From Minisyncoccota bacterium (lineage in GTDB: Bacteria > Patescibacteriota > Minisyncoccia > Phycocordibacterales > GWA1-40-21), in NCBI GenBank assembly GCA_041664585.1, contig JBAYKL010000002.1, positions 13,494-77,493 of the forward strand: 64,000 nucleotides of DNA. The letters are read 5' to 3'. Below are positions 2,716-32,081 of the stretch, piece by piece (the stretch's first letter is position 1; the number at the start of each line of letters is the position of its first letter). Under the pieces are notes generated by a model that was not told the origin of the DNA, made no database searches, and saw only the letters and a list, made by a program, of their open reading frames with translations. Both the position numbers and the translations under genes were made by a program.

Positions 2716-4875
2716 ATGAAGTTATTAATTGTAGAGTCTCCGTCCAAAGCGAAGACCATAGAAAAATATTTGGAAGGATCATACACAGTGCGTGCGAGCA
2801 TTGGGCATATTCGTGATTTACCAAAAAGCAATAAAAAGGCTATTGATATAGAAGGTGGCTTTATTCCCCATTATGAAATAAGCCCAGGAAAAGAAAAAGT
2901 TGTTGCTGAATTAAAATCTCTTTCAAACAAAGCAGAAGAAGTATTACTCGCAACTGACCCTGACCGAGAAGGAGAAGCTATTGCTTGGCACATCAAAGAA
3001 GCTATTGGTCTCAAAAATCCAAAGAGAGTTTGTTTCTATGAAATTACGAAAGATGCTATTAAAGAAGCAATTCAAAATCCTCGTGATATAGATGAGAACT
3101 TGAGAAAAGCTCAGGAAGCAAGAAGAGTACTAGATAGACTTGTAGGATATGATCTCTCTGGCCTTATTTGGAAAAAAGTAAGATACGGACTTTCTGCTGG
3201 ACGTGTACAATCCCCTGCTCTCAGAATTATAATGGAAAGGGAAAGAGAAATCCGTGCATTCAACCCTGAACAATTCTGGGTTATTGAAGCTGATACAGAA
3301 ACAAAAGAAAGAACAAAAATAACTTTTGGATGTGACAAAGAACCTAGAGATATAAAAGAAGTAGAAAAAATTCTTGATACTGCAAAGAAAGAACCTTGGT
3401 CTGTAAAAAGTGTTACAGAAACAGAAGCCAAGAGATCACCAAAAGCTCCATTTACAACTTCTACTCTTCAACAAACAGCAAGCACTCGCTTAGGATACGC
3501 TCCATCAAAAACAATGATGGTTGCTCAAAGATTATATGAAGCTGGTCTCATTACATACATGAGAACAGACAGCACCAACTTGAGCGTAACTGCACTTGAT
3601 CAAATTGGTAATTTGGTAAATAAAAAATATGGTGCTGACTATGCAAAAAGAAATGTATATGTAACAAAAAGCAAAAATGCTCAAGAAGCTCACGAAGCTA
3701 TTCGCCCTACAGATGTAAACAAAGAAATGGCTGGTGCAAATGATGAACAAGCACATCTATATCGTTTGATATGGCAAAGAACTGTTGCATCTCAAATGAC
3801 AGATGCAAAAATTCTCAGAACAAAAATCACTGCGATAGTAAATAACGAAATTCCAACTTTCTCTATAAACGGCTCAAGAATGCTTTTTGATGGTTGGCTC
3901 AAGGCTGATCCAGATGCTCGTGGTGAAGATGTTGAACTTCCAAAAGTAAAAGAAGGTGATGCTTTAAATCTACAAGACATCAGAAGCCAAGAGAAATTTA
4001 CAGAACCACCAGGAAGATATACTGAAGCTGGGCTTATAAAAGAACTTGAAAAAAGAGGTATTGGTAGACCTTCTACATATGCTTCTATTATGAAAACCAT
4101 AGAAACAAGAGGTTATGTTGAAAAACAAAACAAAACTCTCTTCCCTACTGACACAGGAGAAGTGGTCAGTGATTTCTTGGAAAATAATTTCGCAGAATAT
4201 ATAAGTGATACATTTACAGCTGACATGGAAGACAAGCTCGATGATATTTCAAATGGGAAAAGAGAATATGAAAAAACTTTGAAAGATTTCTATGGACCTT
4301 TTCTTAAAGATGTAAAAGCAAAAGACAAAATAGAAAAGATTACAAATCTTGGGGAAGCAGATCCAAAACATATTTGTCCAAAATGCGGCGGACCAATGGT
4401 TATAAAACTTTCTAAAACTGGTAAATTCCTAAGTTGTAAAAACTTCCCTGACTGTGTAGGTGCAAGAAAAATAACAGGAGAAGAGCTTGAGGGACCAAAA
4501 GAGACTGGGGAAATTTGTCCTGAATGTGGTGTGGGTAAGCTTGTAGAAAGAGATGGAAGATTTGGAAGATTCATCGCTTGTGCAAATTATCCAAAATGTA
4601 AATATATTAAAAAAGGAGAAGGAGCTCCACAAAATACAACCGGAGTAAAATGTCCTGTATGTAAAACTGGTGAAATGTCTGAACGTAGAGGAAGATTTGG
4701 AGTGTTCTACAGCTGTACCAACTATCCAAAATGTAAGAATGCAATAAAAGCAAAACCAACAGGTAACCTCTGTCCTACTTGTGGAGCCTTAATGATGGAA
4801 GGCACCAAAACTATCCCTGAAAGATGTTCTGATAAAACTTGTCCTAATCATAGACCAGATAAATTAAATAAATAA
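2716..4875 (+). CDS. topA: DNA topoisomerase I with C-terminal C4 zinc-ribbon repeats
   Basis: 719 aa; TOPRIM N-terminus and type IA core; four CxxC...CxxC zinc ribbons at the C-terminus. Confidence 0.9.
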   Translation: MKLLIVESPSKAKTIEKYLEGSYTVRASIGHIRDLPKSNKKAIDIEGGFIPHYEISPGKEKVVAELKSLSNKAEEVLLATDPDREGEAIAWHIKEAIGLKNPKRVCFYEITKDAIKEAIQNPRDIDENLRKAQEARRVLDRLVGYDLSGLIWKKVRYGLSAGRVQSPALRIIMEREREIRAFNPEQFWVIEADTETKERTKITFGCDKEPRDIKEVEKILDTAKKEPWSVKSVTETEAKRSPKAPFTTSTLQQTASTRLGYAPSKTMMVAQRLYEAGLITYMRTDSTNLSVTALDQIGNLVNKKYGADYAKRNVYVTKSKNAQEAHEAIRPTDVNKEMAGANDEQAHLYRLIWQRTVASQMTDAKILRTKITAIVNNEIPTFSINGSRMLFDGWLKADPDARGEDVELPKVKEGDALNLQDIRSQEKFTEPPGRYTEAGLIKELEKRGIGRPSTYASIMKTIETRGYVEKQNKTLFPTDTGEVVSDFLENNFAEYISDTFTADMEDKLDDISNGKREYEKTLKDFYGPFLKDVKAKDKIEKITNLGEADPKHICPKCGGPMVIKLSKTGKFLSCKNFPDCVGARKITGEELEGPKETGEICPECGVGKLVERDGRFGRFIACANYPKCKYIKKGEGAPQNTTGVKCPVCKTGEMSERRGRFGVFYSCTNYPKCKNAIKAKPTGNLCPTCGALMMEGTKTIPERCSDKTCPNHRPDKLNK

Positions 4876-5428: not shown

Positions 5429-6943
5429 ATGCCTTATGAAGATATAGTCTCATTCATGGATTCCCCTTCAAAAGAAGATATCGCGCTTGTAAAAAAGGCG
5501 TGTCTTTTTGCTGAAGAAGTACATAAAGATGTAAAAAGGAAGTCCGGAGAGCCTTATTTTAACCACGTATTTGAGACTGCTAAAACACTAGCTCAACTCA
5601 AAATGGGAGCGGTTACTATATCTGCTGGACTACTTCACGACTCTATAGAAGACGGTGTGGCTACAGAAGAATGCATAAGAAAAGAATTCGGCGAAGAAAT
5701 TCTTTTCTTAGTAAATGGAGTTACTAAACTTGGTAAAGTAAAATATCGTGGAGCGGAAAGGCATATCGAAAGTTTGAGAAAATTCATGGTGGCTATGGCA
5801 CAAGATATTCGTGTCCTTATTATTCGTCTTGCCGACAGACTACACAACATGAAGACTCTTCAATACGTTCGTCCAGACAAACAAAAAAGAATCGCTATGG
5901 AAACTCTTGAAATATATGCTCCACTTGCATACAGACTTTCTATAAGAAAACTCTCCCGTGAACTTGAAGACCTTTCATTCAAATATGTTGACCCAAAAGA
6001 ATATGAAGAAACAATTAAACTTTTAAAACAAAAAAAGGAAGAGACTCTTCCTAGACTAGAAAAGTTTATCAAATCTGTAAAAAAGGCCTTAGCAAAAGAG
6101 GGTCTTACAAATATAGCTACAGACTACAGACAAAAAGGCATATATAGTTTACATAAAAAATTAGATTCTAAAGATAACGACATAGAAAAAATATATGATA
6201 TCTTGGCTCTTAGAGTTATGGTAGATGACGTAGCAGAATGTTATAAAGTCCTTGGTATAATCCATGGTGAATGGAGACCCCTACCTGGAAGAATAAAAGA
6301 CTACATAGCCTTTCCTAAACCAAATGGATATAAAAGCCTTCATACAACAATATTCACTGGTGACGGCTCTATTGTAGAGGTCCAGATCAGGACAAAAGAG
6401 ATGCACTTAAGTGCTGAGTATGGTATCGCCTCTCACATTTCATATAAAGAAAATGGTAATAAAAATATAAAAGACAATTCTGATATAAATTGGTTCAGAC
6501 AATTCCTACCAAAAACTATTAACTTTGCAAAAGAAAACGTAAACAAAAAAGAAGTGCCACTTTGGATTAACGAAATTGTAGATTCACAAGAGAAAATAAA
6601 AACAGACAATGAAAAAGAAGGTTTTATGGACGACCTTAAATCTGATTTTTTCAATCAAAGAATTTTCATTTTCACACCAAAGGGAGAAGTTGTAGATTTA
6701 CCAGCTGGGTCTACAACCTTAGACTTCGCTTTCGCTATACACTCTGACATCGGAATACACACCAATAGCGCAAAAGTAAACGGAAAAATGTCCGCCCTTA
6801 AAACAGAACTCAAAAATGGTGACATTGTAGAAATAGTAACAAAAAAAGATAGCAAGCCCACATCAAAGTGGCTTGAGATGGTAAAGACAAACATGGCCAA
6901 GAGGCATATTAATAATTATTTGGATAAACAAAAGAAAAAATAA
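5429..6943 (+). CDS. rel: bifunctional (p)ppGpp synthetase/hydrolase, RelA/SpoT family
   Basis: HD domain (HDSIEDG), synthetase domain, and TGS domain at the C-terminus; 504 aa, no ACT domain. Confidence 0.85.
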   Translation: MPYEDIVSFMDSPSKEDIALVKKACLFAEEVHKDVKRKSGEPYFNHVFETAKTLAQLKMGAVTISAGLLHDSIEDGVATEECIRKEFGEEILFLVNGVTKLGKVKYRGAERHIESLRKFMVAMAQDIRVLIIRLADRLHNMKTLQYVRPDKQKRIAMETLEIYAPLAYRLSIRKLSRELEDLSFKYVDPKEYEETIKLLKQKKEETLPRLEKFIKSVKKALAKEGLTNIATDYRQKGIYSLHKKLDSKDNDIEKIYDILALRVMVDDVAECYKVLGIIHGEWRPLPGRIKDYIAFPKPNGYKSLHTTIFTGDGSIVEVQIRTKEMHLSAEYGIASHISYKENGNKNIKDNSDINWFRQFLPKTINFAKENVNKKEVPLWINEIVDSQEKIKTDNEKEGFMDDLKSDFFNQRIFIFTPKGEVVDLPAGSTTLDFAFAIHSDIGIHTNSAKVNGKMSALKTELKNGDIVEIVTKKDSKPTSKWLEMVKTNMAKRHINNYLDKQKKK

Positions 6944-6945
6944 AA

Positions 6946-6970
6946 AGTGCGTTTAGAAACGCACTTTTTA
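6946..6970. terminator. bidirectional intrinsic terminator between convergent rel and parB
   Basis: hairpin agtgcgtttagaaacgcact flanked by A-run and T-run. Confidence 0.6.
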
Positions 6971-6971
6971 T

Positions 6972-7958
6972 TTATAAACTAAAGTTTTTTACAGAATAAA
7001 GCTCTTCATTTTCTTCGTCAGCCTTTTTCTCTTCCTTACTTCTATCATCCAAAAGCTCGATAGGTTCTTCTGATTTTATTTCTCCGACTTCTGCAATATG
7101 TCTATTTAACATCTCATCTGCTTTCTTCTTTTTTTGTCCTTCCATTAAATCGAGTATCGTACGAAGATCATCATTTGAAAAGAAATCTATTGTAATCTTT
7201 CCACCATTTTGTCCTTTTTCAATATGTACTCTAGTACCAAGAGATTCTGTAAATTTTTCTTCCAGAGAAACTATTTCTGGATCAAAAACATTTTCTTTCT
7301 TTCTAGCTCTTTCTGTAGCGATCTTTCTAGCTACAAGCTCAGCATCACGAACAGTCATCTTCTTATATATGATCTCTTTAAACAAAACCTCTTGTTCGTC
7401 TGGTCTATCTACAAGCATAAGAAGAGGTCTAGTATGTCCCTCGCTTATCTTACCCTCTCTAAGGGCCATAAGTATGTGCTCAGGCAACAAAAGTATACGA
7501 AGACTGTTTGATACGTATTCCCTACTTTTACCCATTTTCTGGGCAATCTGAGTGTGTTTGAGGCCAAACTGGTCTGCAAGCTGTCTAAAAGCCACCGCAC
7601 GGTCTACGGCATTTAAATCCTCTCTTTGTAGGTTCTCAATGATAGCAAGCTCAAGCTTCATCAAATTACTTTCTTCATTTGAACGAATAACGACAGGTAC
7701 TTGAGATACGCCAGCAAGTTTAGATGCACGAAGTCTTCTTTCTCCTGAAATAAGTTCATATTCAACAACAATACCGTCATCTTTTACGATTTCATTTCTT
7801 GTAACTACAAGGGGTTGAAGTACACCGTACTGTTTTATAGATTCCCCAAGGTCTCTAAGTTTGCTTTCATCAAACTCTTTTCTTGGTTGATATGGATTTG
7901 GTTTTATCTTATCTACCTCTACCCAGAATATTGAATCGCTGAAAAATTGTGATGCCAT
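6972..7958 (-). CDS. parB: chromosome partitioning protein ParB/Spo0J
   Basis: ParB N-terminal domain with GERRLRA motif, HTH, and acidic C-terminus. Confidence 0.85.
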   Translation of the reverse strand: MASQFFSDSIFWVEVDKIKPNPYQPRKEFDESKLRDLGESIKQYGVLQPLVVTRNEIVKDDGIVVEYELISGERRLRASKLAGVSQVPVVIRSNEESNLMKLELAIIENLQREDLNAVDRAVAFRQLADQFGLKHTQIAQKMGKSREYVSNSLRILLLPEHILMALREGKISEGHTRPLLMLVDRPDEQEVLFKEIIYKKMTVRDAELVARKIATERARKKENVFDPEIVSLEEKFTESLGTRVHIEKGQNGGKITIDFFSNDDLRTILDLMEGQKKKKADEMLNRHIAEVGEIKSEEPIELLDDRSKEEKKADEENEELYSVKNFSL

Positions 7959-8056
7959 TTTGTTAATTAAATTAATTTCTTATTCAGTATTTTAACATGT
8001 AATCCAAACTAACAAAAATTGATTTTTGTTGACAAATTGTGTAGTATTTGACACAT

Positions 8057-8140
8057 GCCGGAGTGGCGGAATGGTAGACGCGCACGACTCAAAATCGTGT
8101 CTCGAAAGGGGTGAGGGTTCGAGTCCCTCCTCCGGCACCA
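8057..8140 (+). tRNA. tRNA-Leu (anticodon CAA)
   Basis: cloverleaf with long variable arm, anticodon loop ctCAAaa, T-loop GGTTCGAGTCC, encoded CCA. Confidence 0.85.
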
Positions 8141-8148
8141 AAATAAAA

Positions 8149-8180
8149 ACACGTAACCCTTTGGTTACGTGTTTCGTTTT
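8149..8180. terminator. intrinsic terminator (bidirectional)
   Basis: acacgtaacc/ggttacgtgt hairpin plus T-run; lies between tRNA-Leu and the stop of the convergent minus-strand gene. Confidence 0.6.
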
Positions 8181-8879
8181 TCACCCATGAATCAGGTCTG
8201 CCAATTCACGAACTTTTTGTGGAATAAGATATTCATGATTCCCAAGACTCGATATTCTTTCGCAGATACTTGAGGCAACCAAGAAGATATCCACGTACTC
8301 CAAGAAAGCCGAGACATTATTCGCATCCACTCCACTAGCCAAAGCCAGGGGGTTTTTGTCTCCGAGACATCGTTTAATTGAAATCAGCTTATCAATATCT
8401 GGTGCAGAACCTGTTTTGTTTCCACTTGTTGTTACAACGTCAACGATTTGAACAGCTGCACGACAAGCACTTTCCAGTGCATCACCATCGATGTGTGGAT
8501 TAATGTACTTAAACCCAACACCACCAAAAACTTTTACACTTGAGGGTACTAAAAGTTTTTGATCTGGCATGCCATCAATCCATAATCCATCTAATGCACT
8601 ACACTGGTCTGCCATTTCAACCAGCCTGTCCCATTTTTTTTCATTGGACAAATCGAGAAAGTTAATCCCGATCCAAAAAGTTGGGAAGTGCCTTCTTACA
8701 TGTTCATAGATTTCGTGTAAATCACAGAAATGCATTCCGTGACCGATGAGAAAAACACCGTCTGCGCCATTTTCTTTGGCGATTTCAGTATTTCTCAAAG
8801 CGTGGCCAATACCCTGTTGGGTATTCGGGTCAATACAATGGATAACTGGGAAAAACAATTCCTTTAAACGAGCTATCAT
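8181..8879 (-). CDS. TIM-barrel protein, PcrB/GGGP-synthase-like (alternatively BtpA-like)
   Basis: 232 aa; IHCIDPNT resembles the PcrB/GGGPS (F/K)LDPNK motif, GADGVFLIGHG resembles DAVIIGGS, HVRRHF is shared, glycine-rich phosphate-binding C-terminus; GC higher than neighbours. Confidence 0.4.
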   Translation of the reverse strand: MIARLKELFFPVIHCIDPNTQQGIGHALRNTEIAKENGADGVFLIGHGMHFCDLHEIYEHVRRHFPTFWIGINFLDLSNEKKWDRLVEMADQCSALDGLWIDGMPDQKLLVPSSVKVFGGVGFKYINPHIDGDALESACRAAVQIVDVVTTSGNKTGSAPDIDKLISIKRCLGDKNPLALASGVDANNVSAFLEYVDIFLVASSICERISSLGNHEYLIPQKVRELADLIHG

Positions 8880-8983
8880 AACAGATCTCCTTTCGAGGTT
8901 AATCTATACATAAATCTACATACAAAAAAATATAAGTCAACACTACCTTGTTATGACCCCACTTTTATGTAAATATAATCCTG

Positions 8984-9871
8984 ATGGAAATAATAAAACC
9001 CAAAATCATAGTAATCCTTGGCCCAACCTCATCAGGCAAAAGTGATGTAGCTGTTTCTATGGCTAAAAAATTCAATGGGGAAATAATAAGTGCAGATTCT
9101 AGACAGGTATACAAAGGGATGGATTTGGGTACGGGGAAAATAACAAAAAAAGAAATGCTTGGTATTCCACACTACTTACTTGATGTAGCAAACCCTAAAA
9201 CCATTTTTTCTGTGGAGAAATATAAGAAACTAGCAGAAAAGAAAATTGAAGAAATATTAAAGAAAAACAAAACACCAATAATATGTGGTGGCACTGGATT
9301 CTATATTGATAGTATAGTAAAAAATATCCTTCTACCTCAAGTTAAACCGAACAAAAAGCTAAGGAAAGAATTGGAAAATAAAACAACTGAGGAGCTTTAT
9401 AGAACCCTCCAAAAACTCTCCCCTTCTCGTGCTCAAAATATAGATTCAAAAAATAGAGTAAGACTAATCAGAGCAATAGAAATAGCCAAAGCTCTTGGTA
9501 AAGTACCAGAAGTAAAAGAGCTACCAAGTAAATATGAATTCATATTGATAGGTATTGATCTACCAGATGAAATACTTAAAGAAAGAATAAAAATAAGATT
9601 ACAAAAACGCCTTAAAGCTGGAATGCTCAAGGAGGTGCAGAAGCTAAAAAAAGATGGTGTATCTTGGAAGAGATTAGAATCCTTCGGCCTAGAGTACAGA
9701 AACTGTGCTTTGTTTCTACAAAATAAAATAAGCAAAGAACAAATGATTCAAAATATAGAAAAAGAAAGCTTCCAATATGTTAAAAGACAGAGAACGTGGT
9801 TTAGAAGAAACAAGAATATAAAGTGGTTTGGAAACAATAAAAGAGATATCTTAAACCATCTTCTGAAATAA
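8984..9871 (+). CDS. miaA: tRNA dimethylallyltransferase
   Basis: P-loop GPTSSGKS, then ADSRQVYKGMDLGTGK; 295 aa. Confidence 0.9.
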   Translation: MEIIKPKIIVILGPTSSGKSDVAVSMAKKFNGEIISADSRQVYKGMDLGTGKITKKEMLGIPHYLLDVANPKTIFSVEKYKKLAEKKIEEILKKNKTPIICGGTGFYIDSIVKNILLPQVKPNKKLRKELENKTTEELYRTLQKLSPSRAQNIDSKNRVRLIRAIEIAKALGKVPEVKELPSKYEFILIGIDLPDEILKERIKIRLQKRLKAGMLKEVQKLKKDGVSWKRLESFGLEYRNCALFLQNKISKEQMIQNIEKESFQYVKRQRTWFRRNKNIKWFGNNKRDILNHLLK

Positions 9872-27429: not shown

Positions 27430-27503
27430 TGGGGGATCGTCTAATGGTAGGACGCTCGCCTTTGGCGCGAAGAATCGGGGTTCGAGTCCCTGTCCCCCAG
27501 CCA
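27430..27503 (+). tRNA. tRNA-Gln (anticodon TTG)
   Basis: U1-A72 acceptor (TGGGGGA/TCCCCCA), anticodon loop CTTTGGC, T-loop GGTTCGAGTCC, encoded CCA. Confidence 0.8.
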
Positions 27504-27562
27504 ACTCATGCGTAGCTCGAGACGCATTTGAGCTTTAAAAGCTAATTTTAGAAAACATAAAT

Positions 27563-28183
27563 ATGGCATCAAATAATGTTCCCTATATGTCAGCTCCAGG
27601 TTCTATAGTTAAAATTTTAGAAAAAATAAAAGAAGCTGGAACTCCTGAAAACTTTAACGCTGATTTTTTATCAACCAAACTTGGGTTTAAGGGAGGTAAT
27701 TACAGAACCTTCATTTCGTGGGCTAAAAAAGCTGCACTATTAAATAGTGATGGAACACCTACCCAACTTTATAAAAAATTTAGAAACCCCACAACTTCAA
27801 AAAGTAGTTTTGCTCAAGCTATTAGAAATGCATACCCAGAACTTTATTCAAGAAATGAATACTGTCATGACCTCGACAAAAAAGGTTTTAAAGGATTAGT
27901 TATGGAGGCAACGGGTGAAGCACATGATTCTAAAATAGTTGATAATATAGTATCAACTTTCTTCAACGCAAAATCCCTAGCTGATTTTGATAGTAAAATC
28001 GATGCACCATTGGAAGAACCAATTTTGGAGGGAAAAAAAGAAGTTAATGAAACTAATACATCAAATAAAAAAATAAATTTAGGATTAAATTACACTATTA
28101 ATTTAGTTCTCCCTAAAACTGATGACCCTTCGGTTTATAATGCAATATTTAAATCACTTCGAGATAATCTTCTAAAAGATTAA
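27563..28183 (+). CDS. hypothetical protein (island gene A)
   Basis: 206 aa; immediately downstream of tRNA-Gln; 3-nt gap to gene B. Confidence 0.5.
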   Translation: MASNNVPYMSAPGSIVKILEKIKEAGTPENFNADFLSTKLGFKGGNYRTFISWAKKAALLNSDGTPTQLYKKFRNPTTSKSSFAQAIRNAYPELYSRNEYCHDLDKKGFKGLVMEATGEAHDSKIVDNIVSTFFNAKSLADFDSKIDAPLEEPILEGKKEVNETNTSNKKINLGLNYTINLVLPKTDDPSVYNAIFKSLRDNLLKD

Positions 28184-28186
28184 TTT

Positions 28187-28765
28187 ATGAACGATGAGTC
28201 AAATATAAAATTATTTGTTTTAGCTAATTCTTTAACTGAGAATAATTTAGATATGGTTGAACATAACCATAATATAGATTTGGGAAGAAAAGAACAAGCA
28301 CCTACTAAAGAGCAAGATTACTATGCTCAATTTGATTCTGTATTCAGGAAAGAAGCAAGAGAAATGTCGAAACACTATGAAGTTTTTTACTGTCTTGAAA
28401 AGTCAATTAGAAATCTTGTTGTGCAATTAATGTTTGAAAAGTATGGTGAAAATTGGTGGGAAGATAAAGTAAAAGAAGATATAAAGAATAATGTTAAAGA
28501 TAATATTCAAAAAGAAATCGAATCTGGTTTTACAGAAAGATCTCAATCTAATATTGACTATACAACTTTTGGGGAATTAACCGAAATTGTAAAAAATAAC
28601 TGGGAAGCATTCTCTGGATTATTTAGGGACGTTAAAGCTTTTTCAAAAATCATGAGTAGTTTAAATCAGTTGCGTGGACCTATTGCACATTGTTGCCCAT
28701 TAGCAGAAGATGAGGCTGTGCGTCTTAATTTGGTAGTAAAGGATTGGTTTAGATTAATGGAATAG
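28187..28765 (+). CDS. HEPN-like protein with Rx4H motif (island gene B; putative RNase/abortive-infection-type)
   Basis: C-terminal LNQLRGPIAHCCP fits the HEPN Rx4-6H signature in a predicted helical domain (Swt1/Abi-like pattern). Confidence 0.4.
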   Translation: MNDESNIKLFVLANSLTENNLDMVEHNHNIDLGRKEQAPTKEQDYYAQFDSVFRKEAREMSKHYEVFYCLEKSIRNLVVQLMFEKYGENWWEDKVKEDIKNNVKDNIQKEIESGFTERSQSNIDYTTFGELTEIVKNNWEAFSGLFRDVKAFSKIMSSLNQLRGPIAHCCPLAEDEAVRLNLVVKDWFRLME

Positions 28766-28815
28766 GTTTAGATTTTATCTAGTAAAAAAACGTGCATTAC
28801 TAGTATAATAAAATT

Positions 28816-29280
28816 ATGGAAATTATAAACTTTATCGCAAATAACGCCATGACATTTTTAACTGCAATAACAGTATTTATCCTTTTCTATTATACTAGAG
28901 AAACATATTTATTAAGAAAAGAGTCTCAAAAACAGACTCAGATACAATTTACCCCATATCTTTCTTTAAGAAATTTAGATAGCGGTGCAACCTTATCGAA
29001 TCTTGGAAAAGGGATTGCATTACATATTCAAGTTGATCCATCTATCCAAATTGAATCCCAATTGATTCTATTAATTCCTTCAATAGGAGCGGGGGAAGAT
29101 AGAATTTTATATTCTATGTCGAAGAACGGGGATGGTGCCTGGGGTTTAATAACAAGGCAGCTTCCTGATGAAGTAGGTATTACATACTCAGATATTCTAG
29201 GTAACAATTATAAAGCCTCATTCTCAAGAGAATATAAAGGTATGGGTGTTTTCAAAGAGGTAAAACAGAATAAATTATAG
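28816..29280 (+). CDS. hypothetical membrane-anchored protein (island gene C)
   Basis: N-terminal TM; a TATAAT sits 6 nt upstream of the ATG (leaderless-type start). Confidence 0.45.
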   Translation: MEIINFIANNAMTFLTAITVFILFYYTRETYLLRKESQKQTQIQFTPYLSLRNLDSGATLSNLGKGIALHIQVDPSIQIESQLILLIPSIGAGEDRILYSMSKNGDGAWGLITRQLPDEVGITYSDILGNNYKASFSREYKGMGVFKEVKQNKL

Positions 29281-29359
29281 CTTTTTTAGTGCGCTCAAGT
29301 TGCGTCGTTTTAATATACTAAGATTAGCTTAAACTGCCTTACAGGGCTTAGCCGACAAC

Positions 29360-29381
29360 GGTTCCGACACGAGTCCCCCAG
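29360..29381 (+). repeat. degenerate copy of the tRNA-Gln 3' end (possible att remnant)
   Basis: ggttccgacacgagtcccccag matches the tRNA-Gln 3' end ggttcgagtccctgtcccccag at 16 of 22 positions, with both ends matching. Confidence 0.3.
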
Positions 29382-29422
29382 CAAAGAAAATTTTAGGAGG
29401 AATTTAAAATAAAAAGATAATA

Positions 29423-29448
29423 AAAAAGGCACACAAATTTGTGTGCCG
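29423..29448 (-). terminator. intrinsic terminator for the minus-strand gene ending at 29449
   Basis: ggcacacaaatttgtgtgcc hairpin with a T-run on the minus strand. Confidence 0.6.
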
Positions 29449-29925
29449 TCATGTGCTTAGGTTTCGAAGAAGGGCCCTCATACGCCTTCCTTCTTCTATC
29501 TTGAATGATAAATCATTGCCCGATAAGCCCATTTTAAGTCCCCACAGTTGATCCCAAGCAACAGACTCTTCTTCAGATCCAGACGGTGCATCCTTATATG
29601 CTTCCTCAGCATCTTCTAGAATTTCTCTTCTAGTTTTTGATCTGCCAAGAAAATTTAGTTCAACACCAAGATTTTGTATTTCTTTTGGTTTAGATTTCTC
29701 ATCTTGTTGTTTAAGACTCTCAATCAAACGATGTCCGCGAAGGACACTGTTACAGAGTTCGTTATTACTTTCACGAACTATATCATCCAAACTACGAGTT
29801 GGACCAATTGGCCAAATATGTCCACATGGTGCTCCACTCATGGCAACCTCCCTTTTAAAATTGTTTAAAGAACCCCTACTTATATTTAATGCTACAACAA
29901 AAAATACACTAGTCAAATCATCCAC
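29449..29925 (-). CDS. hypothetical protein (GC-elevated)
   Basis: 158-aa ORF; real start may be the internal MSGAPCGH. Confidence 0.4.
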   Translation of the reverse strand: MDDLTSVFFVVALNISRGSLNNFKREVAMSGAPCGHIWPIGPTRSLDDIVRESNNELCNSVLRGHRLIESLKQQDEKSKPKEIQNLGVELNFLGRSKTRREILEDAEEAYKDAPSGSEEESVAWDQLWGLKMGLSGNDLSFKIEEGRRMRALLRNLST

Positions 29926-30014
29926 AAACTTTTGCTATAAGAAAAGGCTCGACCAGATAAATCTGGAAGAGCCTTGTTTTTGCAAAGTGGACAATATTTA
30001 TTCATTAGTGAAGG

Positions 30015-30215
30015 TTACTTGCGGGTATCGAAGCCTGTCTCACCAAGATTACCTTCCCTGTCCACATCTTGGAAAATCTTTATAGACCTGCCTCCTTCGT
30101 GTACTTTTTGCACCAAAGGATGATCATACTTTCCATCCTTAAAGTGCCCAGAAACGTGCATCCGATCTATTATAGGTGTACTCATGACGCCCTCCTTTTT
30201 AGGGTTGCTTCCCAA
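30015..30215 (-). CDS. small hypothetical protein (GC-elevated)
   Basis: 56-66 aa; lies between an NTase-domain gene and the downstream gene. Confidence 0.3.
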   Translation of the reverse strand: MGSNPKKEGVMSTPIIDRMHVSGHFKDGKYDHPLVQKVHEGGRSIKIFQDVDREGNLGETGFDTRK

Positions 30216-30239
30216 ACGATTTGGAAAGAACTTGTTCAG

Positions 30240-30872
30240 TTATAATCCTACAATAAGTCTTAGATCCGTCAACATTTTCCTTGTGTCAGTAAATGCTTTC
30301 AGAACTTCAGACTCGTGAATATGCTTGCTGTTCTTGTATTTATATCGAAATTCCCTTATCCACAGACCGTCTTTACTAGACAATATGTCCTTGAATAAGA
30401 CAACATCGTTCCCACCCCAATACCTAAATGCATATAGAGAGTAGGAATAAACAAAGTTTAGAATATTCAGCGCGTTAGGAAACCTCCCATCATAGGCAGC
30501 ACTAGTTGCCCACTCATAAAAAGTTTCAGCACGCTTTAAAAGATACATTGGTACTTTATTGTGTACCCTTGTAGCAAGTAAACTTTCTCTGTCTTGATCT
30601 ATAGATCCAAAAATTCCTTCACCAGTTAATAACGGTTCAGTAATAAGTGGATCTAAGTTTTCAATCAAAGGAGATACTAATGACCGACTCAAGAAAGCAA
30701 TATCTAATTGTTCATAAAAAAACCCGCCATACTTATCATCGTTGTCTTTCAGGACAACAAACAGATCGGTATCTTTTCCTTTTCTGTTTCCATACCAGGT
30801 TACAGATTCTATCTGCTCCATAGGTATTACCGAAAACAAAACAGGAAGTATCTTATCATTTTTCATAACCAA
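30240..30872 (-). CDS. nucleotidyltransferase-domain protein (Pol-beta superfamily) with helical C-terminal domain
   Basis: WYGNRKGKDTDLFVVL fits the minimal NTase hG[GS]...DxD motif; 210 aa. Confidence 0.45.
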   Translation of the reverse strand: MVMKNDKILPVLFSVIPMEQIESVTWYGNRKGKDTDLFVVLKDNDDKYGGFFYEQLDIAFLSRSLVSPLIENLDPLITEPLLTGEGIFGSIDQDRESLLATRVHNKVPMYLLKRAETFYEWATSAAYDGRFPNALNILNFVYSYSLYAFRYWGGNDVVLFKDILSSKDGLWIREFRYKYKNSKHIHESEVLKAFTDTRKMLTDLRLIVGL

Positions 30873-30952
30873 CTCCTTTCAAAGTTCAAATTCTTTTATA
30901 ACCCTACAATATAGATCTGGAAATAGCAACGACTTCTATACTAACCAATAAA

Positions 30953-31393
30953 TCACTTCCCCATCACAAAATCAAAAATAGCTTTTGCATTTTTACCCAT
31001 AACTGGCAACCTATCTAACTCATACCAATTTGCTTCAGCGATTTCTTTCCCATCAATATGTATTTCTGAATTATCTATATCTTCTTTAAATATAGATAAC
31101 GTATCTTTTTTATATTCATGTTCGAAATGAAGATCTCCAACATATTCTGGTTTCTGTAATTGAATACCAACTTCTTCTTTGCACTCACGAATTATTGCAT
31201 CATTAATATTTTCATTTTCATGAACTCCGCCGCCAGGAAATGTCCAGGTATTTGGATAGTAAGTTAAACGTACCATAAGAATCCTATTTTGATTAAACAG
31301 AATTACTTTTACACCCTTTGTTTTAGGACGAATAAAAAACCAATACGCTCTGTGAAGTTTATTTATAAATACCGCCAAAGTAATATTTCTCAT
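30953..31393 (-). CDS. NUDIX hydrolase
   Basis: canonical Nudix box GGGVHENENINDAIIRECKEEVGI; start may be upstream, at 31474. Confidence 0.75.
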   Translation of the reverse strand: MRNITLAVFINKLHRAYWFFIRPKTKGVKVILFNQNRILMVRLTYYPNTWTFPGGGVHENENINDAIIRECKEEVGIQLQKPEYVGDLHFEHEYKKDTLSIFKEDIDNSEIHIDGKEIAEANWYELDRLPVMGKNAKAIFDFVMGK

Positions 31394-31499
31394 ACTGGGA
31401 TTATAACATTGTTTTAAAACCACGCATTTGACAAGCGTGACTTTATATATTAATATAGTAAGTAGGGACAACAAACAAGAACCTTGAAAGGAATTTCTG

Positions 31500-32081
31500 A
31501 TGTCGACAAAAATTATACATATCAGTGATGAATTCAGAGAAAATCTGGAATTGCCAGTGGATGGTCCATGCTATGAGCTAGCGATAGCTCTGCATCGTGG
31601 ACTAGGCTGGCCGCTTGTTGGTTTACTTGATAAATCATCGGTAAATCAAAAATGGCGGCACGCAGCAGTCAAAACCCCAGAAAGTGGCCTTTGGGATGCC
31701 AGAGGGTTGATTACTGAAAAAGAATTCGGGAAACCATTTCCAGAAATCGACTCGCCGTATGTAATCATGGATATCAGCGAAGATGATCTTCGTTCGATAA
31801 GGCCAGTTCGTGAAATTGCCATAGAAATAATCGCCAAAATAGCTGAGGCGCTATGGCCTGAGTTGCCATGGATAAATGGACAACAAAAGCGTTACAAGGA
31901 GTTTGCTGACGCATTAGAGGCTTTGTCCAGGAAATACGACTTATGGATCGGTGGTCCGGTACCAGGTTGTCCCCCAGCATTATTTGATGGTCGTGGTGAT
32001 AACCTGGAAAAAGGATATGCACTGGAACAAACCGCGGACGGACTAGGCTTCAGAATAGACCGCTACTTTGACAACATGTAG
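31500..32081 (+). CDS. hypothetical protein (GC-elevated)
   Basis: TTGACA-17-TAATAT promoter and AAAGGA RBS; 193 aa. Confidence 0.45.
   Translation: MSTKIIHISDEFRENLELPVDGPCYELAIALHRGLGWPLVGLLDKSSVNQKWRHAAVKTPESGLWDARGLITEKEFGKPFPEIDSPYVIMDISEDDLRSIRPVREIAIEIIAKIAEALWPELPWINGQQKRYKEFADALEALSRKYDLWIGGPVPGCPPALFDGRGDNLEKGYALEQTADGLGFRIDRYFDNM

Follow-up and report, generated by a model that had tools for sequence, protein, structure and literature searches.

Introduction

This locus raises the question of why three small genes of one orientation stand immediately behind a tRNA-Gln gene in a member of the Candidate Phyla Radiation (CPR; Patescibacteria), and of how they came to be there. It lies in a stretch of 64,000 nucleotides (nt) of contig JBAYKL010000002.1 (assembly GCA_041664585.1), from a Candidatus Paceibacterota genome; this whole stretch is called the window below. 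An earlier note on the window had described a tRNA-adjacent mini-island with a HEPN-like protein and a degenerate repeat of the tRNA 3' end. Its outline holds: a tRNA-Gln recognized by both ARAGORN and Rfam is followed by three open reading frames (ORFs) on the + strand, the first two of which encode 206 and 192 amino acids (aa) and are separated by 3 nt.

We propose that positions 27504-29385 form a small acquired cassette, targeted to the tRNA and carrying a DUF5343-HEPN operon of toxin-antitoxin-like or abortive-infection-like type. A probability of about 0.6 is given to this reading. It draws on the families of the two proteins, the HEPN motif, the gene order, purifying selection, horizontal spread, the cassette junctions, direct repeats found in relatives and a conserved element at the cassette end. 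The features of the locus are the following (L-numbers such as L049, L054 and L139 are labels of comparison loci).

27430-27503, + strand: tRNA-Gln, anticodon UUG (ttg); ARAGORN, and the Rfam tRNA model at 55.5 bits
27504-27562, + strand: cassette leader with an inverted repeat; comparison with L054 and L049
27563-28183, + strand: gene A, DUF5343 protein (PDC-M34A), 206 aa; Pfam PF17278 and PADLOC
28187-28765, + strand: gene B, Swt1-family HEPN protein (PDC-M34B), 192 aa; Pfam PF18731 and PADLOC
28816-29280, + strand: gene C, single-pass membrane protein by its hydrophobic segment, 154 aa; terminal gene of the cassette
29286-29385, + strand: non-coding cassette-end element of about 100 nt; nhmmer E 6e-22 and 6e-21
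29383-29447, no strand assigned: host DNA presumed to have flanked the tRNA originally, with a hairpin terminator at 29428-29447; terminator scan

Genes A and B

The size of gene A had been given correctly in the earlier note, which left its family unknown. The protein belongs to Pfam DUF5343 (PF17278, 1.4e-47) and matches the PADLOC model PDC-M34A (PDLC04589, 5.2e-47), residues 5-203 aligning with profile positions 4-207 of 208. For gene B, the proposed HEPN domain of the Rx4-6H type is borne out. B matches HEPN_Swt1 (PF18731; 1.5e-14, 54.7 bits against a cut-off of 27.5, profile positions 2-113 of 115) and PADLOC PDC-M34B (PDLC04592; 2e-41), residues 1-189 covering profile positions 1-188 of 192. 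PADLOC returns in addition a weak match to a Csx1/Csm6 HEPN model (1.7e-4). The motif, R163-GPIA-H168 (R163-x4-H168), is encoded at 28673-28690, and the C-terminal part of the protein contains LNQLRGPIAHCCPLAEDE / LNQLRGPIAHCCP. R163 and H168, as well as N160, E71, S73 and R75, are invariant in 57 homologues. As for the fold, the AlphaFold model of B is all-alpha (pLDDT, the predicted local confidence score, 84.8), with helix 149-167 terminating in the Rx4H motif, and a Foldseek search with this model gave no significant match among solved structures. B is predicted to be an RNase effector that uses R163 and H168.

The AlphaFold model of gene A (pLDDT 79.3) gave no significant Foldseek match either. 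Its residues 12-66 follow the order H-H-H-b-b, the pattern of winged helix-turn-helix domains. They are followed by a helical part (68-137), a disordered linker (147-171) and a highly conserved C-terminal tail (174-203). From this modelled architecture, A may be predicted to regulate or neutralize B. An operator upstream of gene A that would be common to the whole family was not found.

The best matches of B are 69-78% identical, yet they come from Bacteroidota, Deltaproteobacteria, Dechloromonas, Pontibacter, Pedobacter and others; the A-B module therefore moves between phyla. Altogether, B has 2979 homologues and A has 805. Using gene B, 80 metagenome loci were recovered. A gene A homologue stands directly upstream of B in 77 of them, the other 3 being cut by contig ends, and no third conserved gene was found beside the pair. 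Otherwise, the surroundings consist of unrelated genes, most of them housekeeping, and in some loci A-B is a solo two-gene insert. Neighbours related to conflict or mobility are sporadic (IS110, RloB/AAA_21, ResIII, HigB, PIN, PemK, AbiGi). Between the window and its two closest relatives, the ratio of nonsynonymous to synonymous substitution rates (dN/dS) is 0.02-0.05 (A 0.04-0.05; B 0.02-0.05), which indicates strong purifying selection. Judged by this gene order, A-B is a fixed operon with a toxin-antitoxin-like two-gene layout, inherited together. Both genes are on the + strand, with only TTT between them. No sigma-70-like promoter could be placed for gene A in the 59 nt that separate the tRNA from the ATG, the one match (27549-27577) overlapping the ATG itself. 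Since the scan found no promoter for gene A, A-B may be transcribed by read-through from the tRNA promoter.

Both proteins match the PDC-M34 models near end to end, and gene B directly follows gene A on the same strand. By these profile matches, A-B is a further member of the PADLOC candidate PDC-M34, and the protein pair itself is not new. PADLOC detects PDC-M34 without requiring a BREX, DISARM or type I context. The 145 PDC systems are untested 'phage defence candidates', whose prediction by 'guilt by embedding' goes back to their position in BREX, DISARM or type I restriction loci (bioRxiv 10.1101/2024.01.29.577857, Payne et al.), and PDC-M34 is given as a two-family cassette in the supplement of that preprint (bioRxiv 10.1101/2024.01.29.577857). 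The present locus differs from such loci in that none of the nine ORFs between 24.5 and 32.1 kb is a restriction or modification gene, while the L049 copy does adjoin DUF4357 and HsdR. It differs also in its position behind a tRNA, in the extra membrane-protein gene and in the conserved cassette ends. In the literature searched, no main-text mention of DUF5343, PDC-M34 or a 'Swt1-like HEPN' was found.

The junctions of the cassette

The left boundary of the cassette is the 3' end of tRNA-Gln: the tRNA stops at 27503, the leader runs from 27504, and homology to the L054 leader starts right after the CCA end of the tRNA. The leader contains an inverted repeat, ATGCGT (27508-27513) and ACGCAT (27522-27527), around AGCTCGAG (6-8-6), which is lengthened by CTC/GAG so as to span 27505-27532. 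Its predicted fold (-10.9 kcal/mol, z -1.1) is not exceptional. Its sequence is about 88% identical to that of L054 and about 86% to that of L049, compared with 51-69% at the synonymous sites of A and B. The motif has a single occurrence in the window. The leader is confined to the sub-lineage formed by the window, L049 and L054; in L054, it is duplicated as a right-hand direct repeat. The inverted repeat may serve as a recombination core, as an operator or as a processing hairpin.

Two side observations concern this region. In the Logan assembly of SRR18595301, the locus is split precisely at 27503 (contigs L004 and L007, with a 30-nt overlap, 27474-27503); this fork in the assembly graph may reflect a variant with other DNA after the tRNA in the same sample. 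Also, an octamer, C(T/A)CGAGAC (27516-27523 in the window), recurs on the cassette strand at junctions of L054, L139 and L142. A stretch of 3.9 kb in L144 holds 4 copies, and L139 and L142 hold 5 copies each, where about 3 per 64 kb and strand are expected from composition. The octamer resembles the tRNA T-loop sequence TTCGAGTC.

At the right end, the degenerate copy of the tRNA 3' end is real and lies where the earlier note had placed it. The repeat ggttccgacacgagtcccccag (29360-29381) has 15 ungapped matches out of 22 to the tRNA-Gln 3' end, the count of 16 given previously being one too high. The exact 10-mer that it shares with the tRNA end is GTCCCCCAGC (29373-29382). Beyond 29385, no homology is found to the cassettes of L054, L049 and L139. 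It can be proposed that 29383-29447 is the original trailer of tRNA-Gln; according to the terminator scan, its terminator (29428-29447) is common to the convergent gene at 29449-29925.

Insertion at the tRNA had been suggested from the window. Its own repeat is insufficient for this purpose, and support comes instead from relatives, in particular L054 and L049. In L054 (also L144), the leader and A-B-C are found with 85.6% DNA identity behind a tRNA-Gln(CUG), with a different upstream flank. There, A-B-C is flanked by a direct repeat matching at 27 of 28 positions (E 6e-10) and extendable to 39 nt, which is composed of CAGCCA and the hairpin leader. Because the element end, CCAGCCA and the hairpin leader adjoin at the L054 inter-cassette junction, this junction has the form expected of the attachment site of a circular cassette. 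L049 and L050 are 88.7% identical in DNA to the window over 27481-28764, that is from the interior of the tRNA T-arm to the stop codon of B. Their B is 96% identical and is followed by DUF4357 and HsdR (type I restriction). No tRNA stands at their junction, where only a fossil tRNA 3' end, ATTCGAGTCATAGTAGCCTATCCA, is left. Other arrangements are tRNA-Gln(CUG)-A-B followed by the end element (L051), tRNA-Gln(CUG) with 2.5 kb of other cargo and then A-B (L052), and tRNA-Glu-A-B (L062).

L139 (4375-6590, Candidatus Nomurabacteria) shows similar ends around another content. Here, tRNA-Ser(gga) is followed by the fossil 3' end of another tRNA with a perfect hairpin and then by three genes. They encode a 237-aa A-like protein, a DpnII/MboI-fold nuclease (PADLOC Aga_Helical-REase, 8e-17) and a gene C homologue. 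The 237-aa protein resembles DUF5343 in its C-terminal tail only (hhalign E 5e-5; PADLOC 8e-6). The unit lies between exact 24-nt direct repeats (E 3e-9).

Some cargo of the comparison loci may be recorded for itself. Behind the tRNA-Gln(CUG) of L054, a second cassette (2033-2686, also in L144) codes for a protein of 217 aa whose N-terminus resembles a zinc ribbon and which contains RNDESH (Rx4H). It matches PHROG 1305 'DNA binding protein' (2.6e-36), has no Pfam match and may be another HEPN-like gene. The region 4840-8579 of L052, a larger stack of cargo with a mobile look, contains behind its tRNA-Gln(CUG) a UDG-family gene, a Gp49/HTH (HigB/HigA-like) pair, a gene for a 154-aa protein with a weak DUF6941 match and then DUF5343-HEPN; this 154-aa protein is unrelated to gene C.

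A conserved element at the cassette end

Aligning the DNA that lies 3' of cassette-terminal genes brought out an element of about 100 nt. In the window it is non-coding, has a GC content of 0.47 and occupies 29286-29385. Its boxes are, in order, GCTCGAGACnCGTCG ... ACTAAAAT ... AAATAACCTT ... GGGCTTG ... GGTTCTAACnCGAG ... CAGCnA. Its end (29360-29382, core GTCCCCCAGC) is the degenerate tRNA-Gln repeat. The attR-like scar of the earlier note is therefore the last quarter of a conserved element, the insertion that it was meant to mark being supported through the relatives.

The element has 11 copies in 7 loci, each directly 3' of the last gene of a cassette, and starts no more than about 16 nt from the upstream stop in 10 of the 10 copies with a clear stop codon. 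The window has one significant copy only. The nhmmer profile was trained on six copies, and further copies were found outside the training set: one in L051 directly after the stop codon of B (4738-4833, 3e-12), one in L044 after a nucleotidyltransferase-like gene (3e-11), a second one in L054 and two more in L142. In L142 and L054, genes and elements form head-to-tail arrays. The L142 array (6001-9420) opens with a gene C homologue, which is followed by genes of 368, 223 and 135 aa, and an element copy comes after each of these four genes; its first two copies are near-identical over about 55 nt.

RNAalifold predicted no conserved pairing among the 11 copies. Conservation is therefore at the level of sequence, as for protein-binding DNA, and not that of a structured RNA or an attC hairpin. 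Two identities proposed for the element were rejected: a known RNA, since Rfam returns the tRNA only, and an integron attC, since there is neither a conserved fold nor core sites. A search of viral contigs with a DNA pattern derived from the element gave chance sites only. The final bases of the element differ between loci and agree with the left junction of their own locus. What the two ends have in common is GTCCCCCAGC in the window, an exact stretch of 24 nt in L139 and one of 28-39 nt in L054. Such a pairing of a variable core with conserved arms is the signature of site-specific recombination.

Gene C

The membrane anchoring proposed for gene C agrees with the one hydrophobic segment of the protein, at its N-terminus (residues 6-24, mean Kyte-Doolittle value 1.83). 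A TATAAT box (28804-28809) stops 6 nt short of the ATG, and because it is so close, a leaderless start is plausible for this gene. No match was obtained in Pfam, PADLOC, NCBIfam or PHROGs. Among 24 homologues, the two with an organism name belong to Candidatus Paceibacterota and Candidatus Nomurabacteria (CPR); so far, gene C would be a membrane protein known from Patescibacteria (CPR) loci only. The ungapped dN/dS estimate for gene C is unreliable owing to an indel and was not used.

Behind A-B, gene C is present in the window and in L054 but missing in L049, in L051 and in more than 75 other loci. Its homologues are found after the A-like 237-aa protein and the DpnII/MboI-fold nuclease in L139, after a 91-aa and a 274-aa protein in L142, and in a region of L141 that is rich in methyltransferases and has a large serine recombinase nearby. 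Because different nuclease modules precede it elsewhere, gene C stands outside the conserved A-B pair and outside PDC-M34. It may be a common cargo, or a partner, placed at the end of different nuclease cassettes. The 274-aa protein of L142 contains RNESVH, seen by eye only; its kinship to gene B was considered and rejected, hhalign being negative.

A model for the cassette

The following steps can be proposed for the acquired cassette. It would have entered this Candidatus Paceibacterota genome at the 3' end of tRNA-Gln(UUG), by means of a recombinase encoded elsewhere and acting in trans at a specific site. Its left end would be the hairpin leader abutting the CCA, and its right end the element of about 100 nt, whose tip repeats the final bases of the tRNA. 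Through its conserved C-terminal tail and the winged-helix-like domain at its N-terminus, gene A would keep B in an inactive state or regulate the operon. Upon infection or loss of A, B would be released and, as a metal-independent RNase acting through R163 and H168, would cut RNA and so arrest growth.

The comparison loci allow a wider and more tentative idea, which we regard as possible but short of probable. CPR bacteria may carry a family of integrase-less cassettes, hitherto undescribed, with a palindromic leader and an end of about 100 nt, lined up head-to-tail behind tRNAs and moved by a recombinase in trans. Its conflict cargo would include DUF5343-HEPN, A-like proteins with nucleases of restriction-endonuclease fold, single HEPN-like genes, nucleotidyltransferases and small membrane proteins. 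The tRNA-Asn region of the window would then be a second, diverged member.

That region has the following layout. The tRNA-Asn(gtt) (49474-49546) is followed by a hairpin, GCGACCT...AGGTCGC, and by two ORFs (470 aa and 313 aa) without a Pfam family. After the 313-aa ORF comes a weak match to the end element (52170-52208, nhmmer E 2.4), which is not significant alone and terminates in CGGGGAGCA, resembling the tRNA-Asn 3' end CACGGAGCA. The whole (49547-52236) may represent a further cassette of this type that has diverged more.

Alternative explanations

Several observations weigh against an insertion targeted to the tRNA. Shuffles of the 5 kb downstream reach at least 15 of 22 matches in 1.7% of cases (p ~0.02), so that the repeat is only moderately unusual, and an equally good 11-mer match at 31968 is judged a coincidence. 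The 10-mer GTCCCCCAGC has 3 copies in the window against 0.03 expected. Its third copy (31969) was rejected as a second scar, because it encodes G-C-P-P-A, conserved in an intact family of about 190 aa (233 representatives). Lying in a conserved coding motif, it must be coincidental, and such matches can therefore arise by chance in this window. With window statistics that are moderate and a third copy that is coincidental, the significance of the repeat comes from the comparative data and not from the window alone. The GC content of the cassette (0.319, against 0.355 for the window) is barely deviant. A T-loop-like motif stands upstream of gene A in just 7 of 62 loci, and since most members outside the low-GC, CPR-like loci have no tRNA nearby, linkage to a tRNA is a trait of one sub-lineage and not of PDC-M34 as a whole. 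The alignment of tRNA-Gln flanks in relatives proposed by the earlier note did not yield an empty site: neither this nor an excised form was seen in the 41 related CPR loci examined, which were reached via a flanking amidase-like gene, because none of them keeps the DAGK-tRNA-Gln synteny. Five near-identical contigs, obtained by exact-protein look-ups with DAGK and B, all carry the cassette or break at its edge. As the earlier note had stated, no integrase remains: an integrase or recombinase domain is absent from the nine ORFs scanned between 24.5 and 32.1 kb, and also from the ten ORFs that were scanned near the three other tRNA genes of the window. No recombinase gene was linked to the end element. 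A phage or plasmid vehicle was also considered and rejected, with no phage match, one distant plasmid match and 0 to 2 distant viral contigs. A rival reading does without any insertion at an attachment site: A-B(-C) would stand behind tRNAs because read-through from strong tRNA promoters is favoured in compact CPR genomes. The element and the hairpins would then be terminators, processing signals or repeats of the repetitive extragenic palindromic type, and the likeness to tRNA ends a by-product. Terminator-like hairpins do often follow the element, and the lack of a placed gene A promoter in the 59 nt after the tRNA, the missing integrase, the weak repeat of the window, the coincidental 11-mer and the barely deviant composition all fit. 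We nevertheless hold read-through alone to be unlikely, since the same cassette stands behind two tRNA-Gln isoacceptors and a tRNA-Glu with unrelated upstream flanks, since fossil tRNA 3' ends persist in L049 and L139 where no functioning tRNA is present, and since long direct repeats bracket cassettes exactly, with a locus-specific core and conserved arms. Because the element has no conserved fold, its reading as a terminator or structured RNA is disfavoured as well.

Other doubts bear on the function of the genes carried by the proposed tRNA-targeted cassette. A-B could be a plain addiction (toxin-antitoxin) module that ensures its own maintenance only, without contributing to phage defence. 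The two genes form a self-contained module that is found dispersed among housekeeping genes, A is built like an antitoxin (DNA-binding-like N-terminus, disordered linker, conserved tail), and toxin-antitoxin genes (PemK, HigB, Gp49/HTH) occur in its neighbourhood. This restriction to addiction appears rather doubtful, given that the family came to notice through its embedding in BREX, DISARM or type I restriction loci, 97 occurrences of the cassette being listed, and that some copies lie near HsdR, AbiGi or RloB/AAA_21; in any case, addiction and defence roles are not mutually exclusive. A different arrangement would make the locus a three-gene unit peculiar to CPR, in which gene C acts as sensor, anchor or second effector and pairs with interchangeable nuclease modules. 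In the window, L054, L139 and L142, gene C shares the strand of the genes before it and is separated from them by 10-60 nt, and the A-like protein of L139 has the C-terminal tail of A. Such a unit seems improbable, because A-B occurs without gene C in nearly all lineages, because in L141 gene C follows a divergently transcribed methyltransferase and because gene C of the window has an apparent TATAAT box of its own; the element also follows unrelated genes, so that gene C may be mere common cargo of cassette ends. Finally, B might be catalytically inactive or purely RNA-binding, as supposed for the HEPN domains of eukaryotic Swt1, which a survey of HEPN domains infers to be inactive (Anantharaman et al. 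2013, PMC3710099). The structure comparison, in which no significant HEPN match appeared, would be compatible with this. To the bacterial Swt1/Abi2-type versions, the same survey attributes catalytic activity and a frequent link to restriction-modification (PMC3710099), and an inactive B is very unlikely because the catalytic residues, among the six that are invariant in the 57 sequences, are conserved.

Comparison with known systems

Besides PDC-M34, the pair recalls the HEPN-MNT systems of type II/VII (Shewanella SO_3166/SO_3165), which also have two genes, with a small toxic Rx4-6H HEPN RNase and an upstream partner that neutralizes it, a role that is predicted here. The partner in the present locus is DUF5343 and not a minimal nucleotidyltransferase, and for this reason neutralization by AMPylation is not expected. 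In addition, B falls in the Swt1/Abi2 branch and has no significant sequence or fold match to solved HEPN toxins. B shares this HEPN branch with Abi2/AbiD/AbiF (PMC3710099). However, AbiD and AbiF are single larger proteins, whereas B is a stand-alone protein of 192 aa with an obligate DUF5343 partner.

As regards the carrier, the cassette has in common with tRNA-targeting islands and cis-mobilizable elements the position at a tRNA 3' end, a repeat of the tRNA end at the far boundary, which is degenerate in the window and clear in L054 and L139, the patchy distribution and the tandem accretion seen in relatives. It differs from them in its size of 1.9 kb, in having no integrase and in conserved ends that are common to unrelated cargo. 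Like integron cassettes, or attC arrays without an integrase, it is short and recombinase-less, with a conserved end site of about 100 nt and head-to-tail copies (L142, L054). In contrast with attC, the element has no conserved hairpin and no consistent RYYYAAC/GTTRRRY sites, the alignment being read by eye. There is no integron integrase or attI, and the anchor here is the 3' end of a tRNA.

Other features of the window

To the right of the cassette, 29449-32081 is an orphan block with genes for proteins of 158 aa (-), 66 aa (-) and 210 aa (-), a NUDIX protein (-) and a 193-aa protein (+). The 193-aa gene has a GC content of 0.454, compared with 0.355 for the window, and its family of about 190 aa (233 representatives) has no Pfam, NCBIfam or PHROG model. 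NUDIX-domain genes occur three times in the 64 kb (30953-31474, 48187-49083 and 54417-54887), one of them fused to NusB.

Significance

Taken by itself, the HEPN assignment is ordinary and adds one more member to a catalogued candidate. The DUF5343-HEPN pair is nevertheless among the most tightly conserved and most widely transferred small modules of its type, with about 70% identity across phyla and dN/dS below 0.06. As an experimentally uncharacterized pair, A-B lends itself well to a simple assay of toxicity and of effects on phage.

Known defence systems are generally said to be scarce in CPR bacteria. In this locus, a candidate defence system reaches them on a defined cassette of 1.9 kb. 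No description of Patescibacteria cassettes of this kind was found in the literature searched, and the packaging, a tiny, tRNA-anchored, integrase-less cassette whose ends are shared with other cargo, is a variant for which that search gave no precedent. Ends that are conserved across unrelated cargo and across CPR lineages, together with repeats that are specific to each locus, point to a recombination system that no local gene explains. If this is true, it would give a handle on the exchange of conflict genes among symbionts with reduced genomes, and the 100-nt element would be a sequence tag with which more cargo could be found.

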